In this document: piece after piece, positions 3,898 to 23,945 of the stretch
Layout of the letters: every line of letters starts with the position of its first letter
Numbering within the stretch: the stretch's first letter is position 1
Source: Candidatus Hodarchaeota archaeon
GTDB taxonomy: Archaea; Asgardarchaeota; Heimdallarchaeia; Hodarchaeales; Hodarchaeaceae
Length of the DNA stretch: 26,010 nt
NCBI GenBank assembly: GCA_016839785.1
Contig: JAEOTQ010000052.1
Location: 1 to 26,010 of the forward strand
Direction of reading: 5' to 3'
Notes under the pieces: model-generated
Told to the model about the DNA's origin: nothing
The model's input: only the letters and a program-made list of their open reading frames with translations
The model's database searches: none
Made by a program: the position numbers and the translations under genes

Positions 3898-4110
3898 TCC
3901 TACCCTTTTTGAAAATTTTCGCTCTTATAAGTTTGTACCCGAGAGAGAGCGGTGAAAATGACGAATGTAACGAAACTGAGTCTTTATATCTAAGACGAAA
4001 ATTCAATTATTTGATGTCGGACAAATTCAACCATACATTCTCCTCGCTGTAAAGAAGCGTCTAGAAGTATTCTTTAGAGTTTGTCATCATTGGGATAAAT
4101 TGTTCCTTAG

Positions 4111-5031
4111 GTGATTAAAGTATCTGTACTCGGTTTAAAAAATTCTTTGATTTTATCACCTCTTGCAGAAATTACTATCCCCCCTTTTCGTAGGATTTGT
4201 GCTGAGTTTGGGGCAGTAACAATTAGTGAAATGACATACGCAAAGGGAATAATTTACAACAATCCAAACTCTTTAAGAAGGATAGCTCGTGCAGAAACTG
4301 AAGAAAAATACGGAATTCAACTCTTAACCAATAATCCAGAAGACTTAGTAAATACGATAGAGCTCATTGAATCAGAAAAACTCTCTGATTTTATTGAACT
4401 GAATTTAGGATGTCCTAAACCGAAAATTACTAATGCAAGGCTCGGTGCAGCTCTTTTAAGAATACAAGATCATATGTTACTGAAGGAATTGTTGGAAATT
4501 GGGAGTTTTAGCTCAAAATTGCCTTTTACAGTGAAGATCCGAGCAGGTTTTGATACTGTTACATTCCCTGATGTCCTAAAATTGGCCGAGAAAACTAATG
4601 TTTCATTTGTCACTCTCCACTCTCGTTTAGCTACAGATACTTACCAAACTCCTGCAAGATCGGAATATTGGAAACAGGCTGTAGAAATTACTAGTATCCC
4701 TATTATCGCAAATGGTGATGTTCAATCTTTTGATCATGCTTGTCAGATTATTGAACAATTTGGGGTTGATGGTGTGGCAATTGGAAGATCAGCAAGAGGA
4801 AATCCCCAAATTTTCCAAAAACAGGCTAAATTGTCTTCACGAGAGGTATATGATAGATTAATTCAATACATGAAAAATACAGTGTACTTTAATCTCTTTA
4901 ATTTACGAGTACAATCTGCTGATTTTATGAAAAATTTTCGTTATGCAGCTAATGCGCGTAAAACAATTCTTTCAATGAATAATCCTAACGAAATAATTGA
5001 ATATACTCGAGAAATGTTAGGAAAAAGATGA
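4111..5031 (+). CDS. dus: tRNA-dihydrouridine synthase family protein
   Basis: Motifs LSPLA, SEM, NLGCP (catalytic Cys), GAALL, VKIR, LHSR, IANGDV and IGR. Confidence 0.93.
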   Translation: MIKVSVLGLKNSLILSPLAEITIPPFRRICAEFGAVTISEMTYAKGIIYNNPNSLRRIARAETEEKYGIQLLTNNPEDLVNTIELIESEKLSDFIELNLGCPKPKITNARLGAALLRIQDHMLLKELLEIGSFSSKLPFTVKIRAGFDTVTFPDVLKLAEKTNVSFVTLHSRLATDTYQTPARSEYWKQAVEITSIPIIANGDVQSFDHACQIIEQFGVDGVAIGRSARGNPQIFQKQAKLSSREVYDRLIQYMKNTVYFNLFNLRVQSADFMKNFRYAANARKTILSMNNPNEIIEYTREMLGKR

Positions 5032-5147
5032 GGGGTAAGTAATAAAAAACATATAATTCAAAGTAGAATTGAATTTATCTTTCATCGAGCTCTTATTAGA
5101 CATCCAACAAAAAAATCTTCTATTGATCTAAATAGGAATCGACTGCG

Positions 5148-6326
5148 ATGCCCATAAATCTCAATCATGAAGCACAGGTGGAATGGGATAAATATTTAGA
5201 GGCCTCTTCTATAGAAGAGCAAATTGTGCATTTAGAACGCTTTGTGGGCGTAGTTGTGAAACATAAAGGGGTTGAAAACCATCTTAGGATGGCTAAACAA
5301 AAATTAAAACGATTAAAAGCCACCCAAGATAAAATACGTCAAGCTAAGAAAGGTTCGGGAGAAAGATGGTTAGTTCCCAAAGGTGAGGACGCTCAAATTG
5401 CTATTATTGGTACAGTTAATTCAGGAAAATCCTCCATATTGAATTCCTTAGCTGGTTCAGATTCTGCCGCTAAGGTTGGTGCTTATCCTTTCACAACTGT
5501 GAAACCTGAAGTTGGATCAACAACCGCGAGGGGCGCTCGTTTACAACTTGTAGAACTCCCTGCAGTGGTTGAGGGGAGTGTACGTGGAGAAATGTCTGGA
5601 AAATTAGTCCTTGCGGGAATTCGTAATTCGGACTGTGTGATATTAACGGTTGATTTGTCGCAAAATCCCGTTGAACAGGTAGAGCTTATTTTCAAAGAAC
5701 TCTCTATAGGTAAAATTCGATTGAACACCGAAAAACCCCCCGTGACGATTGAAAAGGTGGGGTCAGGAAATATACAGATCTTTAATTCCCATCATTATGA
5801 GGGAAAGGGAAATGATGAAATCCTTGAAATAATGAGAACAAAAGGATATATGAATGTAATTGTAAGGTTTCATGGACCTACAACAGTAGATCAATTTTTC
5901 GATTCTCTGGATCATACTATCAGTTATCTACCAGCAATTATTTTTGGTACAAAGGGAGATTTAAAAGGATCAAGGGCTAATTATTCAATATTACTGGAAT
6001 ATTTAGCAGAGAATAGTCTACCAATTGAAATCATACCTGTTTCTAGCTCTAATGACGAAGGGTTTGATGATATTGAGGAGGAAATTTTTAGAAAACTGAG
6101 AAAAATAAGAGTATACACCCGTAATAATGTCGGTGATATTGCTGAGCGGCCAATAATTCTGGACAAAGGAAGCACGATAGAAAATGCTATAGAAGTCCTA
6201 TCTAAGAAAATGCTAGCATATTTTCGATTTGCTCGTGTGTGGGGAAAATCTGCAAAATTTGATGGAGAAAAAGTGGGATTAGATCGAATTTTGGAAGATG
6301 GAGATGTGATTCAAGTATTTGCTTGA
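5148..6326 (+). CDS. DRG/Rbg-like OBG-family GTPase with C-terminal TGS domain
   Basis: HKG.E..L...K.KL N-terminal motif, G1 GTVNSGKS, G2 YPFTT, G4 TKGD and TGS motif FRFARVWGKSAKFDGEKVG...LEDGDVI. G3 is atypical (ELPA). Confidence 0.92.
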   Translation: MPINLNHEAQVEWDKYLEASSIEEQIVHLERFVGVVVKHKGVENHLRMAKQKLKRLKATQDKIRQAKKGSGERWLVPKGEDAQIAIIGTVNSGKSSILNSLAGSDSAAKVGAYPFTTVKPEVGSTTARGARLQLVELPAVVEGSVRGEMSGKLVLAGIRNSDCVILTVDLSQNPVEQVELIFKELSIGKIRLNTEKPPVTIEKVGSGNIQIFNSHHYEGKGNDEILEIMRTKGYMNVIVRFHGPTTVDQFFDSLDHTISYLPAIIFGTKGDLKGSRANYSILLEYLAENSLPIEIIPVSSSNDEGFDDIEEEIFRKLRKIRVYTRNNVGDIAERPIILDKGSTIENAIEVLSKKMLAYFRFARVWGKSAKFDGEKVGLDRILEDGDVIQVFA

Positions 6327-6534
6327 ACATTCTTTACGGTGTATAATTACTTTATAGTTTTCTGGTATAATAATATTAAATAATTAATTGCGAATATTAC
6401 GCAAATAGAGAAAATATCTCACAAGAGCGAAAAATTACCCCAACTTTTTTTTCTCACGAAAATTAGGGACGAAATGTTGGATATACTCGGAACTATGAAA
6501 ATATTTGAAATAGAGCTGTCTTTCAGGGATTTTA

Positions 6535-9285
6535 ATGGTAGATAATTGGCATTCTGTTGATACTCGTACACTAATGACTGACTTAGGAGTGAATGACGAT
6601 TTAGGTCTGTCGTCCGAAGAAGCTAACCATCGTATAGAAAAATATGGTTTAAATGAGTTAAAGAAAAGTGAGAGTAAATCACCAATTACCCTATTCTTTG
6701 AACAATTCGTTGATCCACTTGTTATCATTCTTCTCGTTGCACTTCTAATTTCAATAGTAATCGGGATTTTTTCCACTAATGAACATGAAAAGATAGAATA
6801 TTTTATTGATTCTGCAGCAATTTCCATAATAGTATTATTCAATGCTTTCTTTGGTTTTATCCAGGAATATAGGGCTGAAAAGTCAATTGAAGCACTTAAA
6901 TCTATGGCGGCTCCTTATACAACAGTTGTTCGAGATGGAAAAAAAGATCGTATTGAAGCAAATCAATTAGTACCTGGAGATGTTGTTTTTCTTGAGGAAG
7001 GGGACAAAGTGCCTGCTGATGGAAGATTACTCCAATCTCTTGCTCTACGTATTGATGAGAGCATGTTAACTGGAGAATCTTTTCCAGTTGCAAAAAATGC
7101 GAATACAACAGTACCCATGGATGCCCCTGTTGCAGAAGTGTACAATTCAGTTTTCAGTGGAACAAATGTATCACGCGGACGAGGGCAGATTATTATAACT
7201 CAAACTGGTATGAAAACCGAATTTGGGAAAATTGCACAGGGCTTAATGGAGGAATCTAGAGAAGAAACTCCGCTACAACAGCGATTATCAACTTTAGGGA
7301 AATATATTGGTATTGGAAGTCTTACTATATGTGCTATCATTTTTGTTATTGGAATTATGCTTGGTAGACAAGCTCTAGAGATGTTTATTGTCTCTGTTGG
7401 TCTTGCAGTTGCTGCTGTACCTGAAGGACTACCTGCAGTAGTTACACTATCATTAGCTCTGGGCGTACAAAAGATGAGCAAAAAAAATGCGATTATTCGT
7501 CGTTTACCATCGGTAGAAACACTCGGATCCATAACTGTTATTTGTTCCGACAAAACAGGGACATTAACTATGAATAAAATGACTGTTCGCAAAATATTGA
7601 CTGTAGATGATGAATTTGATGTTGCAGAAAAGCTAGAATTGAATAATGCACTGAATGATATCTTATTAATTGGTAAAGAATGTAACAATGCCCAAATTTC
7701 TGAGGTTCAAACAGGGATTGATGTTGGAGATCCTACTGAATTAGCCCTATTGAGAGTAGCTAGACGTTTGAATCTTCCAGAACCATCTCTGGAACGAGTA
7801 TATGAAATTCCATTTGATTCAGATTCAAAAAGAATGACTGTAGTTGTGAAAGATGATGCTAATAAGTATTCTGTGTTGATGAAAGGCGCACCTGATGTAC
7901 TCATCAATATTTGCACTCATTACTTAACGAACGGAGAAGTAAAAGAACTAGATGAGAAGAAACGTGCGATTTTAGAGGAACAGGAACAAAACATTGCCAC
8001 CTTAGGATATCGAATGCTAGGTATGGCATCAAAACAAATTGAAAGGGAAAAAGCCGAATTACATGTATTTTCAGAGGATAACGAAGAATTAGAATCAGGA
8101 ATGACATATATTGGAACGGTTGCAATCATGGATCCTCCACGTGAAGGTACAAAAGAAGCAATTGCCACTTGTAGAGATGCTGGAATTCGGCCTATTATGA
8201 TTACTGGGGATCACCTAAAAACTGCAGTTGCAGTTGCCTCTGAAATAGGATTAATAGAAAAACCTGAGGCAGCTATCGCATTAGAGGGGCGTCAACTATC
8301 GAAAATGTCGGATCAAGAGCTATCTGAAAGAGTGAAGGATACAAATGTATTTGCACGAGTTTCTCCTGAACATAAGCTAAGATTAGTTACAGCTTTAAAA
8401 GAGAACAATCAGATAGTTGCTATGACAGGTGACGGTGTGAATGACGCACCTGCATTAAAAAGAGCTGATATTGGAGTTGCGATGGGAATTTCTGGTACCG
8501 ATGTATCTAAAGAAGCTTCAGATATGGTGTTGGCTGATGATGATTTTTCAACCATTGTTGGTGCGATTCTAGAAGGAAGAACAATTTATGATAACATGCG
8601 TAAGTTTGTTCTTTACTTACTCTCATGTAATGCAGGAGAGATAATGGTGATGTTATTAGGAATGATTCTCACCTCTTTACTTTTCCAAGAACCAATCTTA
8701 CCTCTTCTAGCTATACAAATTCTATGGGTAAACCTAGTAACAGATGGATTGCCCGCATTAGCATTGGGTTTAGATCCTCCTGATGCTGATGTGATGGTAA
8801 GAAAACCTCGTGATCCAGATGAGCAAATCTTGACAAGAAAGTCTATTTATTTCATTGTTTATTCAGGATTAATGATTGGGATTGGTACTTTGCTGCTATT
8901 CTTTGTGTATTTGTTACCTGAAATTATGAATGGTGTAGCTCCCACCCCAGAGGACATTATTTTTCCTAGAACGGTCAGTTTCACAATGCTTATAGTGTTT
9001 CAAATGGTAATGGCCCTCAATATCCGAAAGGAAGATCATTCTTTATTAGGAAAGGAATTCATTAGGAATCCCCATCTACTATTAGCCATTGCTAGCTCTG
9101 TGTTCCTACATTTAATGATTCTCTACTTACCTATACTTCAAGGAATATTTGATACTACAGCTTTAGGGTTGATTGATTGGTTTGTAATCATTTTTGTTGG
9201 CAGTATTCTTGTTCTTATTGACGAAATTCGTACAATTCTTGCAAAGAAGGTTCCTCGATTGCACCACTTAGCTGGGTACTGGTAA
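6535..9285 (+). CDS. P-type ATPase, type IIA (Ca2+-transporting, SERCA/PMR1/LMCA1-like)
   Basis: TGES, PEGL, DKTGT phosphorylation site, KGAP, DPPR, TGDGVNDAPAL, M5 SCNAGE and M6 WVNLVTDGLPA. Confidence 0.95.
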   Translation: MVDNWHSVDTRTLMTDLGVNDDLGLSSEEANHRIEKYGLNELKKSESKSPITLFFEQFVDPLVIILLVALLISIVIGIFSTNEHEKIEYFIDSAAISIIVLFNAFFGFIQEYRAEKSIEALKSMAAPYTTVVRDGKKDRIEANQLVPGDVVFLEEGDKVPADGRLLQSLALRIDESMLTGESFPVAKNANTTVPMDAPVAEVYNSVFSGTNVSRGRGQIIITQTGMKTEFGKIAQGLMEESREETPLQQRLSTLGKYIGIGSLTICAIIFVIGIMLGRQALEMFIVSVGLAVAAVPEGLPAVVTLSLALGVQKMSKKNAIIRRLPSVETLGSITVICSDKTGTLTMNKMTVRKILTVDDEFDVAEKLELNNALNDILLIGKECNNAQISEVQTGIDVGDPTELALLRVARRLNLPEPSLERVYEIPFDSDSKRMTVVVKDDANKYSVLMKGAPDVLINICTHYLTNGEVKELDEKKRAILEEQEQNIATLGYRMLGMASKQIEREKAELHVFSEDNEELESGMTYIGTVAIMDPPREGTKEAIATCRDAGIRPIMITGDHLKTAVAVASEIGLIEKPEAAIALEGRQLSKMSDQELSERVKDTNVFARVSPEHKLRLVTALKENNQIVAMTGDGVNDAPALKRADIGVAMGISGTDVSKEASDMVLADDDFSTIVGAILEGRTIYDNMRKFVLYLLSCNAGEIMVMLLGMILTSLLFQEPILPLLAIQILWVNLVTDGLPALALGLDPPDADVMVRKPRDPDEQILTRKSIYFIVYSGLMIGIGTLLLFFVYLLPEIMNGVAPTPEDIIFPRTVSFTMLIVFQMVMALNIRKEDHSLLGKEFIRNPHLLLAIASSVFLHLMILYLPILQGIFDTTALGLIDWFVIIFVGSILVLIDEIRTILAKKVPRLHHLAGYW

Positions 9286-9400
9286 CTTTCTGATGCAATA
9301 TATCTAAACAAGTAATATCCAAAGCAAAGAATTTTAATCATCAAAATTGGCTCATAGTGATATAGTTTATTCGGAAATTCTCCTTGCAATGGTGGAATAG

Positions 9401-10897
9401 ATGGTTTCGATTAGAAGGATTCGCGTAAATCGATTTCTTAATGCAACTATATTTTTCTTATTGACACTTCTGCAGATGATCATTGTTTCATGGATTTCTA
9501 TTAGTCAAGTTCCAGAAGAAGGATCAGAATTTACATTTGCAAAGATTCTTGGATTTTATATCTCGATTAATCCGTTTTCAGAACTAGCTTTTACAGCTGT
9601 TTTAGTAATCCTAACAGGAGGATTGCAAATTTTGTTATTAGCATTCTTAGTAAACGTTGTTTTTTCAAACAAAAATATGATACAAATTTATCCACTACCT
9701 AAGCGAGGAATAGCTCATTTACCAGAAGAGGAACAATTAGTAAATAAAACTATAAATATTGTATCAAAAGTAGCAACCCGTGCAAAAATCAAGGTGAAAA
9801 AAATCTTTGTTTATCGAAAAAGCGTACCAAATGCTTTCAGTCTAGATTTAATACCTATTCCATTTTTACGAAGACCATATATAGTACTAAATACAAATGT
9901 ACTTGAAATACTCAATGATAATGAAATAGAAGCAGTAGTAGCACATGAACTAGCACACGTCAAACATGGGGATAGTTTATTTCGTTTAATCTTATCAATA
10001 CCCCGTTTATTTCTCAATCTTGCTTATTTATTCATCTATCTTCAAGTTCTAACAGGAATTCAAAACGCTCTGTTTGAAAACTTTAGACCGATAGATGCAA
10101 TAGAGAGAACGCTCTTTTTAGGGTTGATATATTTAATCATCGCAATCCTAACTAAATTCACTGTAAGGTTCTTGTATTCTGCGAATCGACAGGCTGAATT
10201 TTTATCTGATTATTTCGCTGCTCAGCTAGTAGGATCTGGTATCTTAATAAACTCGTTGATCCACCTGGGACAACGAAGTGAAACAATGCAAATTTTGTCT
10301 CACGAAATTGAATGGCTAAATGGATTAGCAGGAGAAAAAAAACCATCAGCTGACTTTATGCGTAATATAAATCATCGATTTCCTAGAACACAATTGAATG
10401 AGGACGTTGCACGAGAACTAGCACCTAGAATTTTTCTTGAGGAGAAGTTTTATCAGTTAATGACCGCCTACGGATTGAAAATAGATAAAGATTATCAGGA
10501 TAAGCTAATCATGCAGGCAGTACCTTCATTGTTGGAGAAAAGATCGAAATTTTTCGAAACAATGCATGATAATGAAGAAGTTCTCACTCCTACAAAGTTG
10601 AAAGAGAAGACAATTGATTGGCGAATTTTCGATTCTGATGAGAGTTATTACTTGGATGCAGAAGAACTTGATAATTTCATAATTACATTGCTTTCCCATC
10701 CTCAGAAAATGGTCTTTGAAAATGAAATCTTACAGACTTCAGAAAAGGACAGTGATCATCCAAATTTTAGAACGAGAATACTTCAAATATATAAAATCTT
10801 TCATCCACAAAACTACAGCAAGATTCTGGATCAAATCATGACTCAGAAGGACTCTACTGTTCATTCTGAAAGTGAAAAACCCACAAATACGGATTAG
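9401..10897 (+). CDS. M48/HtpX-family membrane zinc metalloprotease with a long insertion containing an EF-hand-like motif
   Basis: N-terminal TM helices, PNAF, AVVAHELAH (HExxH), third-ligand motif QAEFLSD and distal DHPNFRTRI. Confidence 0.88.
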   Translation: MVSIRRIRVNRFLNATIFFLLTLLQMIIVSWISISQVPEEGSEFTFAKILGFYISINPFSELAFTAVLVILTGGLQILLLAFLVNVVFSNKNMIQIYPLPKRGIAHLPEEEQLVNKTINIVSKVATRAKIKVKKIFVYRKSVPNAFSLDLIPIPFLRRPYIVLNTNVLEILNDNEIEAVVAHELAHVKHGDSLFRLILSIPRLFLNLAYLFIYLQVLTGIQNALFENFRPIDAIERTLFLGLIYLIIAILTKFTVRFLYSANRQAEFLSDYFAAQLVGSGILINSLIHLGQRSETMQILSHEIEWLNGLAGEKKPSADFMRNINHRFPRTQLNEDVARELAPRIFLEEKFYQLMTAYGLKIDKDYQDKLIMQAVPSLLEKRSKFFETMHDNEEVLTPTKLKEKTIDWRIFDSDESYYLDAEELDNFIITLLSHPQKMVFENEILQTSEKDSDHPNFRTRILQIYKIFHPQNYSKILDQIMTQKDSTVHSESEKPTNTD

Positions 10898-21258: not shown

Positions 21259-22254
21259 ATGCAGCACCAACCACGTGTCTTATTAACGCATAATATACCA
21301 AAGAAAGGAATTGACCTATTAAAGGAACATTTCGAAGTCTATATCCTAGAACCAGATAATTCTATAGACGTTCAATTGAACAAGTTGTTGCCCTCATTTG
21401 ATTATCTTATTCCTCTTTTATCAGTGAGGATAAGTGGTGACCTTCTGAGAAAGTGCCCGAAATTAAAGGGTATTGCTAATTATGCAGTGGGCTATAATAA
21501 TATCGATATTGATGCCGCAATTGAATGCGATATCCCAGTTTCAAACACACCAGATGTTCTAACTAATGCCACAGCAGATCTAACATGGGGATTAATTCTT
21601 GCCAGTATGCGTAGGATTGTTGAAGGGGATCAAGAATGTCGTCAAACAAGCTTTTCAGGATGGGCCCCTGAGTATATGCTGGGGTATGAAATAACTGGAA
21701 AGACCCTAGGAATTATAGGGATGGGAAGAATTGGTGCTGCGGTTGCAAAGAGGGCTACAGGCTTTGATATGAAAATTTGCTATTATTCTCGTTCACCCTC
21801 CAAATATAATTCAGAATTACTGAATATGGAACAAATAATCGATTTTAAAAATTTCTTGAAGTCTTGTGATATCATTAGTCTGCACGTACCATATACAGAA
21901 GAAACGCATCATCTCATAGGTGAAAATGAGTTTGATCTGATGAAGAAAGATTCATTTTTAATCAATACATCCCGTGGAAAAGTTGTTGACGAAGTAGCTT
22001 TAATCAACGCACTGAAAGAAGGTAAAATTGCTGGGGCGGGTCTAGATGTCTATTATAATGAACCAATAATACCAAAGGAATTACGTGATCTGAATAATAC
22101 TGTCTTAACTCCCCATATTGGTTCTGCGACAAAATTTGCCCGTGAATTGATGGCGAAAATGGTCGCTGAGAACATAATAGCTATCGAAAATGGATTTCCA
22201 CCTCCCAATATAATACCTGAAATGAAAAAAGAAAGTGTGAAAGGAAATCACTGA
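21259..22254 (+). CDS. gyaR: D-2-hydroxyacid dehydrogenase (glyoxylate reductase / D-glycerate dehydrogenase-like)
   Basis: AVGYNNID, NTPDVLT.ATAD, GIIGMGRIG, INTSRG, AGLDVY..EP and TPHIGSAT. The gene symbol is tentative. Confidence 0.88.
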   Translation: MQHQPRVLLTHNIPKKGIDLLKEHFEVYILEPDNSIDVQLNKLLPSFDYLIPLLSVRISGDLLRKCPKLKGIANYAVGYNNIDIDAAIECDIPVSNTPDVLTNATADLTWGLILASMRRIVEGDQECRQTSFSGWAPEYMLGYEITGKTLGIIGMGRIGAAVAKRATGFDMKICYYSRSPSKYNSELLNMEQIIDFKNFLKSCDIISLHVPYTEETHHLIGENEFDLMKKDSFLINTSRGKVVDEVALINALKEGKIAGAGLDVYYNEPIIPKELRDLNNTVLTPHIGSATKFARELMAKMVAENIIAIENGFPPPNIIPEMKKESVKGNH

Positions 22255-23945
22255 ATTTTATTTAGATTTCCTTTACAATAGGGACAAACTCTGACTCCAG
22301 TTTTTCCAATGTCCTCATAACAATTTGCACACACCATACGTGAACATTGATCACATTGGTATGCAGAATCAGTTGAAGGATGTTGTTCATTGTCTAATTG
22401 ACAGAAAAACGTCTTTCTTTCATCTGGGAAAAACTTGTAAGAATCGGTTTTCTGTTCGACAGGTGTTCCACAATTCTTACAGAAACGACTATCCGCTTTT
22501 ATTGTATCGCCGCAATTCTTACACCATTTAGAGTTTGCAGGTGTTGTTGTTTTAGGGGTTCCATAATCACGTCCGTGAAGTTTCGCTCCACAATTTGTAC
22601 AAAATACATCACTAGGTCGATAAACCGCTTTACACCTGTGACATGCAGTTTTTGGAGGTGACGGCGTCATACTAGGCGTTGTAGTTTGTGTTGATGATGT
22701 ACCTGGGGATGAAGCTACTGCTGCCGCAGTTTTCTTAGAACTCCTTCTTTGAATTACAGCAACAATAAGAACTAAGACAACGATAACACCTATACCTGCT
22801 AACCATGGTGTAGCACCCTTCCAATGGTCTTCATAAGTTACATTCGTATTATAACTTACTTCAAAGGTAATATCCACAGATTCTGAAGGATTGACGAATG
22901 GATCCATGTAGATGAAGAAGTACCAAGTACCATCATTCGGGACAGTAAATGAATCTGATGGTACTAGATCGACATTTTCAATAACTAAATCAGCTACTGA
23001 GACATCGATATTGTCTACCGCTACATAATTAACTTGAAAATCGACACTGATTGGTTCTGTTGTCGGGTTATACCATACTAGATACCAATCTTGAGGGCGT
23101 GGAACCAAAAACGTGTTTGCATAGTCACCAGAGCCATTATAGGACTGTTCGGGGACTATTGTTTCCCAATTATTCCACCGATTAAGATCATTAGCATCAG
23201 TAATGAAAAATTCAATATTCCCAGCTGAAGTCACAGTGAAGTTGTAAGTTAATACAGACCCCTTTTTTAAAAAATACCCAAGGTATTCATAATCATGATC
23301 AGGCTCAATGATCATATCACTTTCGGAATAGCTCCCTGTCAGATCCTTATTCTGCGGGAAATTCTCAAATGGCTGATCCCAGATGATAAACGTCACCTCA
23401 CTTCGCAGCTCACCTAGCGCTTGCATGCTATAATCTATAGTCTGACCTTGTTTCATTGGTTCTCGTTCATACCAATACTCATTGTACCAAATAGTTTGCG
23501 TATCCTGGTATGTGACCGTTCCACTCGCATTACTACTCGCAAATGGATATGGAATAAAAGCCATACTAATCAATGGTAAAATTATGAGCAAGGCAATGAT
23601 ACCCAAAACAGCACCACCACCCCAATAAACTGGAGCATAGTACCATCTTCGGTAAGGATATCCCCACCACCAATTCCAATGCCACCATCGCCGATACCAC
23701 GGCCGATAATATCCACCCCAATATCGACGATGTCGTCTATGATGATAATTTCTTCCTGGTCGGGATCTTGGTGCCCGTGAAACAGTTCGACGAGAACCAG
23801 TACGGCCAAAAGGACGTCCTGAGCTTCTTACTGATCCTACTCTGAAACTACGGCTTCCACCTCGGAATCCACCTCCTCGAAAACCTCCACCACCCCGAAA
23901 GCCACCACCGCCACCTCTAATACCTCCACCACCACCACGAGGCAT
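22248..23945 (-). CDS. Two-TM membrane protein: N-terminal RGG/aromatic low-complexity region, extracytoplasmic beta domains, double zinc ribbon and C-terminal RING-like finger
   Basis: (F/I)RGGGG repeats, two hydrophobic helices, CxxC-x10-CxxCG twice, and a terminal Cys cluster ending CPYC. GGAGG RBS. Confidence 0.85.
   Translation of the reverse strand: MPRGGGGGIRGGGGGFRGGGGFRGGGFRGGSRSFRVGSVRSSGRPFGRTGSRRTVSRAPRSRPGRNYHHRRHRRYWGGYYRPWYRRWWHWNWWWGYPYRRWYYAPVYWGGGAVLGIIALLIILPLISMAFIPYPFASSNASGTVTYQDTQTIWYNEYWYEREPMKQGQTIDYSMQALGELRSEVTFIIWDQPFENFPQNKDLTGSYSESDMIIEPDHDYEYLGYFLKKGSVLTYNFTVTSAGNIEFFITDANDLNRWNNWETIVPEQSYNGSGDYANTFLVPRPQDWYLVWYNPTTEPISVDFQVNYVAVDNIDVSVADLVIENVDLVPSDSFTVPNDGTWYFFIYMDPFVNPSESVDITFEVSYNTNVTYEDHWKGATPWLAGIGVIVVLVLIVAVIQRRSSKKTAAAVASSPGTSSTQTTTPSMTPSPPKTACHRCKAVYRPSDVFCTNCGAKLHGRDYGTPKTTTPANSKWCKNCGDTIKADSRFCKNCGTPVEQKTDSYKFFPDERKTFFCQLDNEQHPSTDSAYQCDQCSRMVCANCYEDIGKTGVRVCPYCKGNLNKIQ

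Follow-up and report, generated by a model that had tools for sequence, protein, structure and literature searches.

A variant of the APD-type membrane proteins in Asgard archaea carries a RING-like tail and is a plausible RING-type ligase

The stretch of DNA considered here (the window, 26,010 nucleotides) belongs to Candidatus Hodarchaeota archaeon (assembly GCA_016839785.1, contig JAEOTQ010000052.1, positions 1 to 26,010) and contains, on its minus strand, an open reading frame (ORF) that stays open over 565 amino acids (aa) followed by a stop codon. Translation and codon arithmetic agree with the architecture proposed in a preliminary description of this DNA, namely a transmembrane segment, a beta-rich domain, a second transmembrane segment, a linker, zinc ribbons and a terminal C4C4 motif (Table 1). 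Directly upstream lies a gene for a membrane protein with a pair of CBS domains, whose stop codon is found 3 nucleotides before the start codon of the ORF. The domain between the two transmembrane segments is related to that of the plant APD1-4 proteins and the C-terminal tail resembles a RING domain, which makes the product a variant of the APD-type membrane proteins in archaea and, as far as sequence can tell, a plausible RING-type ligase.

The layout with two transmembrane segments, taken together with cytoplasmic zinc domains, would place the N-terminal tail in the cytoplasm and the middle domain outside. All four N-x-S/T sequons of the protein fall within this outer domain. The N-tail (residues 1-108, with 25 Arg, 27 Gly, 10 Trp and 10 Tyr) is among the best-conserved parts of the family, with many invariant columns in both the long-form and the wider alignments, including the whole SGRPFGRTG motif. 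Its RGG/FRGG repeats are of a eukaryotic style, and protist relatives of APD have Gly/His-rich N-tails at the same position. The linker that follows the second transmembrane segment (residues 400-431) varies across homologues in both length and sequence. The cysteines of the double zinc ribbon (C435, C438, C449 and C452; C475, C478, C489 and C492) are invariant in 35 of the 35 sequences of the wider alignment, and Pfam DZR (PF12773) scores 38.8 bits on the whole protein and 46.7 bits on the tail alone against a cut-off of 27.3, matching 17 of 17 tails. A scan of the protein against NCBIfam returned chance-level matches only (best 17.1 bits against a cut-off of 55), and phmmer with the whole protein against Protein Data Bank (PDB) sequences gave no match below E 0.18.

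Table 1. Segments of the ORF, its upstream neighbour, and the related loci and proteins mentioned in the text (positions in the window unless a contig is named).
Feature	Position	Strand	Evidence or remark
Whole ORF, 565 aa plus stop	22248..23945	-	Translation; 227 homologues
N-tail, residues 1-108, predicted cytoplasmic	23622..23945	-	RGG/FRGG repeats, SGRPFGRTG motif, Arg/Trp/Tyr-rich tract
Transmembrane segment 1, about residues 109-131	23553..23621	-	Hydrophobic stretch, conserved in both alignments
Extracytoplasmic all-beta domain, residues 134-379	22809..23546	-	Probable APD1-4_N plus APD1-4_M homologue, GOLD-like core
Transmembrane segment 2, about residues 380-399	22749..22808	-	Sequence and alignments
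Basic stop-transfer stretch, then Ser/Thr/Pro/Ala-rich linker, residues 400-431	22653..22748	-	
Double zinc ribbon, residues 432-496	22458..22652	-	CxxC-x10-CxxC twice; Pfam DZR
RING-like C4C4-type domain, residues 505-565	22251..22433	-	Ligand motif at 22275..22403
Upstream partner gene, 321 aa	23949..24914	-	CBS pair plus about four membrane helices; Pfam CBS 57.9 bits
Tail paralogue, 121-aa ORF			Same CQLD...HP...AYxC motif
Tail paralogue, 365-aa ORF			Two copies, CQID and CYLH
Tail paralogue, 134-aa ORF			CCLC plus TPR repeats
Tail paralogue, 274-aa ORF			
Tail paralogue, 586-aa ORF			Two copies, CQID and CAVC
Second cluster with a ubiquitin-like gene	C116:32000-44000; 4050-5807(-), 6288-7538(-), 7559-7888(-), 7911-8702(-), 9020-9565(+), 9662-10240(+)		
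RING-H2-type ORFs	Contigs C111, C182, C3, C54, C163:56851-57249, C198		
RING-less eukaryote-type proteins			P0183, P0214, P0247, P0266, P0229, P0228, P0224, P0268, P0206; P0253

The relationship of the outer domain to APD1-4 emerges from families, profiles and alignments. Pfam APD1-4_N (PF16040) scores 19.8 bits on the whole protein and 21.8 bits on the outer domain alone, below the gathering score of 27. Matches to the same Pfam family at E <= 0.01 are found in 37 of the 76 outer domains, its cut-off is passed by two of the five full-length relatives scanned (P0047 with 28.4 and P0053 with 29.1 bits), and precomputed PF16040 matches are present on some relatives in the protein collection. With APD1-4_M (PF16041), hmmscan gave no match on this protein. 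A profile built from the 76 outer-domain sequences and searched against 1.84 billion representative proteins retrieved 158 proteins at E <= 0.001; among the 106 matches ranked below the close relatives, 90 were scanned, the 16 dropped being fragments, full-length family-type matches and multi-repeat proteins. APD1-4_N is found on 28 of these 90 distant matches (best E 1.2e-48), APD1-4_M on 23 and EMP24/GOLD on 10. The named eukaryotic members of the profile matches, at E values from 1.8e-8 to 2.6e-4, are Brassica, amoebozoan and stramenopile proteins of the APD N+M type, including those of Pellita catalonica (E 1.8e-8), Cochliopodium minus, Balamuthia mandrillaris and Chrysoparadoxa australica as well as a Brassica APD. 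In addition, hhalign of the Asgard outer-domain alignment against 23 eukaryote-type proteins gave a probability of 98.7 (E 3.4e-16, 198 columns), with an alignment that runs through the M region (query residues 14-228) and takes in almost all of the outer domain; this eukaryote-type set was drawn from the matches of the same profile, only some of its members are named, and their APD identity rests on Pfam. The likeness to APD1-4 that had been pointed out earlier is thus borne out by the Pfam counts, the profile search and hhalign. For the segment then quoted (DHDYEYLGYFLKKGS...; DHDYEY...NFTV) the likeness to APD holds, whereas its assignment to the middle domain does not, as the segment matches APD1-4_N; the WYLVWYN block starts the part that aligns with APD1-4_M. 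All in all, we regard it as very probable that the outer domain is homologous to APD1-4 N+M.

The fold of the outer domain leads in a similar direction. The AlphaFold2 model (76 sequences) is all-beta, with 17 strands, a predicted local distance difference test score (pLDDT) of 89.3 and a predicted template modelling score of 0.77. Its core (model residues ~64-180) superposes best on the GOLD domain of p24 proteins, in particular p24beta1 (5azw_B, Z 12.9, root-mean-square deviation (rmsd) 1.6 Å over 89 aa), with further GOLD superpositions on 5gu5_A (Z 12.3) and 7rrm_C (Z 11.9), and Foldseek matches it to p24 GOLD with E 2.9e-5 and probability 1.00. The GOLD-like sandwich of the preliminary description is therefore upheld, although the fold alone is not specific, since other jelly-roll and sandwich folds are found at Z 8-12. 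Pfam EMP24_GP25L (PF01105) gave no match on this protein at E <= 10. The p24/TMED cargo receptors share with it a core that superposes on the GOLD domains of p24beta1, p24gamma2 and TMED1, and are represented among the distant profile matches by those carrying EMP24_GP25L. They cross the membrane once and contain a coiled coil as well as a short coat-binding tail, whereas the protein described here has two membrane segments plus zinc domains.

The C-terminal tail carries the motif C515-x2-D518-x12-C531-x2-C534-x4-C539-x2-C542-x11-C554-x2-C557. All eight ligand positions and H522 are invariant in the 27 long-form homologues, as are L517, P555 and K558, while only I, M, L or V are found at position 546. 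L517, I546, P555 and K558 fall at what we take to be the positions of E2 contact and of the linchpin in structures of RING domains with ubiquitin-conjugating enzymes (E2). Two Pfam RING families match most tails at E <= 0.1, always below their cut-offs: zf-RING_4, presumably the Not4-type RING family, on 17 of 17 and zf-UDP (cellulose synthase) on 16 of 17. The C4C4 RINGs of CNOT4/Not4 and cellulose synthase indeed have the eight ligand positions at nearly the same spacing; they differ from the tail, apart from its scores below the cut-offs, in that its ligand 2 is Asp, and the second pair, C-x2-C in the tail, is C-x-C in Not4. In the AlphaFold2 model of the tail (17 sequences), short strands are accompanied by a helix that begins at the third Cys pair. 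A structural search (VIA) with model residues 82-138 found RING, ZZ and U-box domains at Z 5.5-4.3 (rmsd 1.9-4 Å over 45-57 aa), the RINGs being those of LTN1, RNF146, RNF213, RNF4, Slx1 and Ring1B, together with that of RNF13 (Z 4.4). The top rows of the Foldseek search were RING1B, Bre1, RNF4 and Cbl.

The tail also has paralogues in the same genome (E 4e-12 to 1e-4; Table 1), which sharpen the comparison. Across 20 tail-type domains, ligand 2 is Asp in 16, Cys in three and His in one, hence always a metal-binding residue, which supports Asp518 as a ligand. When the paralogues are included, the 20-domain profile gives 123 matches to PDB sequences at E <= 1, and most of the 60 listed are RINGs; the best are the MAT1 RING (E 2.4e-4), RNF4 (3.3e-4), another at 5.7e-4 and TRIM32 (9.5e-4). 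At E <= 0.01, zf-RING_4 matches 14 and zf-UDP 13 of the 20 domains, followed by Prok-RING_4 (7), zf-RING_2 (5) and Prok-RING_2 (4). An ESM Atlas search with the tail reached a best score of 0.87, below the level at which a match counts. The Not4-like RING of the preliminary description finds support in the cross-brace fold matches, in zf-RING_4 and in the RING matches among PDB sequences, and the check by AlphaFold and Foldseek that had been suggested there returns predominantly cross-brace domains, at moderate model confidence. We conclude that, by predicted fold and by profile, the tail would belong to the RING superfamily as a member of no curated RING family at cut-off. A RING-type fold is probable on this modelling, and the tail would bind zinc.

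A system with which such a domain could work is encoded in the genome (4.04 Mb, 84.5% complete), where three UQ_con E2 matches above the Pfam cut-off (contigs C114, C163 and C116), four ThiF matches to ubiquitin-activating enzymes (E1) and ubiquitin-like genes are found; at one locus, on contig C163, ubiquitin-like, E1, E2 and JAB genes form an operon. In particular, the 586-aa paralogue with two tail-type domains adjoins an E1 gene and a 109-aa ubiquitin-like gene ending in Gly-Gly (...KGG), with an E2 and a JAB gene nearby on the other strand. The protein is present in 18 of 18 same-genus genomes, and of 19 loci in relatives, 16 have E1 next to it; two of the other three are truncated by the locus end. 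This genomic context lends support to the notion that the tail-type domain works with a ubiquitin-like conjugation system. None of the outcomes by which the earlier proposal was to fall has occurred: the fold matches of the tail model are mostly cross-brace domains, the outer domain has profile similarity to APD and GOLD, and ubiquitin-like, E1 and E2 genes are present.

Some further features of the same genome may be mentioned here. The cluster on contig C116 consists of the 109-aa ubiquitin-like gene (KGG), E1, E2, a JAB/MPN gene and the gene of the 586-aa protein, and then of two genes for Arf/Sar-like GTPases. Over residues 67-171 the 586-aa protein resembles E3_UFM1_ligase weakly, with 21.2 bits where the cut-off is 23.2. 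As homologues of Ufm1 are reported in Asgard archaea in the accessible text of PMC12962969, this protein could be a candidate UFL1-like ligase. The RING-H2-type ORFs follow the pattern C-x2-C-x11-13-C-x2-C-x4-H-x2-[HE]-x11-C-x2-C, with a spacing nearly that of the tail in the window, and one of them is about 1.5 kb away from the operon on C163. An hhalign comparison of the 20 tail-type domains with the six RING-H2 segments of the genome reached a probability of 47 across 26 columns but did not bring the ligand pairs into register.

The CBS-membrane gene immediately precedes the family gene on the same strand in 79 of 80 loci, those of short forms as well as long; in the 80th, the contig is too short to accommodate it. 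The membrane part of its product matches no Pfam family, and its ESM Atlas cluster is Asgard-only. The unit formed by the CBS-membrane gene and this gene is the invariant core of the system, and the partner is a candidate regulator or substrate.

The distribution of the family is confined to the Asgard lineage wherever names are given. A word-indexed search returned its 227 homologues at E <= 0.001, and all named ones are labelled as Asgard (Hodarchaeales, Heimdallarchaeota, Lokiarchaeota, Hermodarchaeota, Promethearchaeota). A scan of one genome per species confirmed 125 loci, of which 80 were kept, all from metagenome-assembled genomes of Asgard lineage or records named 'uncultured archaeon'. 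The RING-like tail, that is, a match through residue 565, is present in 17 of the 80; the other relatives are about 480-500 aa long and terminate just past the second zinc ribbon. Of 31 related genomes, those with a full-length long form are the genome of the window and 15 of 18 others of the same genus level; a search at E <= 1e-10 did not find it in the 12 from other families of this class. A quick maximum-likelihood tree calculated from the outer domains unites the whole family in one clade (support by the Shimodaira-Hasegawa-like approximate likelihood-ratio test (SH-aLRT) 99), and likewise the long forms (SH-aLRT 98), whose clade lies within or beside the short forms. This tree is unrooted, its support values are SH-aLRT only, it has eight long branches, and it takes five of its 21 'euk' rows from named eukaryotes; we rely on it solely for family monophyly and long-form monophyly. 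Since the tail is restricted to a single clade and few loci, it looks like a single, lineage-specific addition in one Hodarchaeales-type clade. One same-genus genome has a short-form copy beside the long form (G005:C11:894-2360, 43% identity, query residues 1-498), which is either a paralogue or bin contamination.

With regard to the surroundings of the gene, the last 7 nucleotides of the ORF (22248..22254) are shared with the 3' end of a convergent gene for a D-2-hydroxyacid dehydrogenase (21259..22254, plus strand), a neighbour that is syntenic only in the long-form clade (17 of 80 loci). Two overlapping ORFs on the plus strand (22325..22531 and 22398..22661) were rejected as genes because the minus-strand frame is the one conserved across the 125 loci.

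Comparison with relatives outside the family helps to place the protein. The plant APD1-4 (ABERRANT POLLEN DEVELOPMENT) proteins likewise have two membrane segments around the homologous beta-rich domain, and where this protein has the RING-like tail they bear a zinc-binding RING-type domain at the cytoplasmic C-terminus. The RING-like tail considered here is of another ligand type, C4C4 with Asp, while the RING of plant APD is, as we take it, of the C3HC4 type. The RGG N-tail and the double zinc ribbon are further differences, and the family of the window forms its own long branch relative to APDs in the quick tree. In the accessible text of PMC6118397, APD is listed under the FHC (RING-HC) family codes, and the part of PMC13210498 available to us presents plant APD1-4 as transmembrane RING ubiquitin ligases (E3) with no known substrates, 'orphan E3s'.

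Within Asgard archaea, a subfamily with a single zinc ribbon (the P0237 cluster, which includes a protein named from Heimdallarchaeota LC_2) repeats the same order of Arg/Gly-rich N-tail, transmembrane segment, APD outer domain, transmembrane segment and ribbon. Its members differ in being about 370 aa long, with one zinc ribbon and no RING-like tail. P0237 passes both Pfam cut-offs (APD1-4_N 30.4 bits, APD1-4_M 27.0 bits), and in the tree this subfamily falls among eukaryote-type sequences, with the family of the window apart. Two Heimdall-type proteins, P0221 and P0227, begin with a Gly-rich N-tail and have just one GOLD-like domain, flanked by two transmembrane segments; a zinc ribbon comes next, and then a finger of the RING-H2 type (zf-RING_2 25.0 and 24.4 bits, respectively, against a cut-off of 27.3). 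They represent a putative second case in which this scaffold has been independently joined to a RING.

No RING is present in the protist relatives of APD. The RING-less eukaryote-type APD N+M proteins instead have Pro-rich C-terminal tails, with P[ST]AP in 9 of 23 and PPxY in 3 of 23 within the last 90 residues (Table 1). P[ST]AP docks the endosomal sorting complex required for transport I (ESCRT-I) and PPxY docks Nedd4-type ligases. The PA-TM-RING ligases (RNF13, GRAIL type) follow the same logic, in that a binding domain on the outer or lumenal side is anchored in the membrane and joined to a RING in the cytoplasm, with an unrelated PA-domain fold, a single membrane segment and a RING of the H2 type.

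Collectively, these relationships argue for an outer-domain scaffold that is common to Asgard archaea and eukaryotes and to which RING outputs have probably been attached more than once. Indeed, since the tail is specific to one clade, the eukaryotic APDs go with another subfamily and the protist relatives are RING-less, the RING fusions appear recurrent rather than inherited. The suggestion of the preliminary description that the protein could be a prototype of transmembrane RING ligases is not sustained, because the long forms are one clade while most family members are tail-less, and because eukaryote-type APDs group with the single-ribbon Asgard subfamily and have RING-less relatives in protists.

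As for function, the chances are about even that the protein is a membrane-anchored RING-type ligase or a ligase-like adaptor. In the mechanism that we propose, the outer domain would bind either a ligand outside the cytoplasm or that part of a membrane client which is exposed there. We infer that the cytoplasmic RING-like tail would recruit one of the charged E2 enzymes of the genome, and that the ubiquitin-like protein would then be transferred to nearby lysines on the protein itself, on the CBS-membrane partner or on other membrane proteins. E2-dependent ligase activity would be the weakest step of this reading.

Several findings weigh against a ligase. The tail model is of moderate confidence, with a mean pLDDT of 65 and about 70 over the last 60 residues; Z scores of 5-6 are common for small domains, and Foldseek gave no match for the tail at E <= 0.001, the best E being 0.022. 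The best VIA row for the tail is not a RING at all, as it is the archaeal ribosomal zinc protein aS34. On this protein, the Pfam RING families stay below their cut-offs (zf-UDP 24.5 against 27.1, zf-RING_4 19.8 against 27), Asp is unusual as ligand 2, and six other ORFs of the same genome carry more canonical fingers of the RING-H2 type. Moreover, the gene in the window adjoins no ubiquitin, E1 or E2 gene, all such matches being on other contigs. Lastly, 63 of 80 loci are without the tail, so that the core function of the family cannot depend on it.

Part of this evidence also speaks for the main alternative, which we consider possible but doubtful, that the protein is a receptor or scaffold devoid of ligase activity, acting as a sensor through its outer domain, or as a cargo-binding unit, together with the CBS-membrane partner, with the RING-like tail as a structural or protein-binding zinc module for oligomerisation or docking. 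The tail-less short form is the rule in the family, the CBS-membrane gene is its one universally linked partner, and linkage to ubiquitin, E1 or E2 genes is absent at this locus. The best matches of the tail also include RINGs that we take to be non-ligases (MAT1, TFIIH p44/SSL1 and cellulose synthase), with zf-UDP as the best Pfam match. The paralogous tail domain is, on the other hand, stably linked to the cluster of ubiquitin-like and E1 genes, and residues are conserved at the presumed E2-contact and linchpin positions. The plant relatives of the outer domain are, moreover, RING E3s according to the accessible part of PMC13210498.

Quite unlikely, in our view, is a tail that acts as a ZZ-type or other cross-brace reader of a peptide end or of a ubiquitin-like tail instead of binding an E2. 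ZZ domains are indeed among its top fold matches (Nbr1 at Z 5.5, BIG 5.1, KCMF1 4.9, p62 4.6 and HERC2 4.5), and the ZZ of p62 also appears in the Foldseek search. The sequence comparisons disagree with them, as Pfam ZZ is absent both among the 25 families listed of the 35 matched by the 17 tails and among the 19 that the 20 tail-type domains match, RING families are the most prominent in either list, and the listed PDB sequence matches are mostly RINGs and include no ZZ entry.

Least likely of all is a tail that is related to aS34 and serves as a zinc module binding RNA or ribosomes, which it would tether to the membrane together with the RGG N-tail: this would agree with the VIA row (9fhl_a, Z 6.1, 57 aa aligned, 25% identity), with aS34 as the top match of the tail-only profile against the PDB (E 0.027, without the paralogues) and with a highly conserved tail of RGG tracts, which bind RNA in eukaryotes, but the sequence match is not significant, in the alignment aS34 lacks a CxxC where the third ligand pair would be, and RING proteins outrank it once the paralogues are added to the profile.

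To return to the membrane-anchored ligase or ligase-like adaptor, the literature already covers Asgard ubiquitin systems and soluble RING E3s, including a Helarchaeial one, as the accessible text of 10.1101/2023.07.25.550441 indicates. We found no publication that links APD1-4, DUF4792 or DUF4793 to archaea, and none that describes a membrane-anchored RING-type protein in Asgard archaea, although the supplementary tables of surveys of Asgard eukaryotic signature proteins may list the family generically. The publications retrieved for these domain names deal with plants or with unrelated subjects. In the accessible main text of the structural-modelling survey PMC12962969, the terms 'GOLD', 'p24', 'TMED' and 'APD' have zero occurrences.

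The sequence of the protein suggests that a membrane-ligase design may be older than eukaryotes. A wider reading, which we put forward as unlikely, is that the scaffold of Gly/Arg-rich tail, transmembrane segment, APD/GOLD domain, transmembrane segment and cytoplasmic output would be an Asgard invention, inherited by eukaryotes for the ubiquitin-dependent sorting of membrane cargo, with the protein of the window as a working archaeal membrane E3. The outputs would then differ by lineage while serving the same pathway, with RING-type tails in Hodarchaeales-type archaea, in the RING-H2 Heimdall-type subfamily and in plants, and P(S/T)AP/PPxY motifs in protists. If this were true, the family would be a new eukaryotic signature protein linking the cell surface to the ubiquitin/ESCRT machinery.

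The family also renders some questions accessible. With Cys, Asp and His alternating at ligand 2, it makes Asp as a zinc ligand of RING domains testable, and the same applies to the role of the strictly conserved CBS-membrane partner. Should the ligase reading be true, the plant APD1-4 proteins, 'orphan E3s' in the accessible part of PMC13210498, would gain an archaeal, experimentally tractable relative, and a membrane-bound, surface-facing ligase design would join the pre-eukaryotic toolkit.

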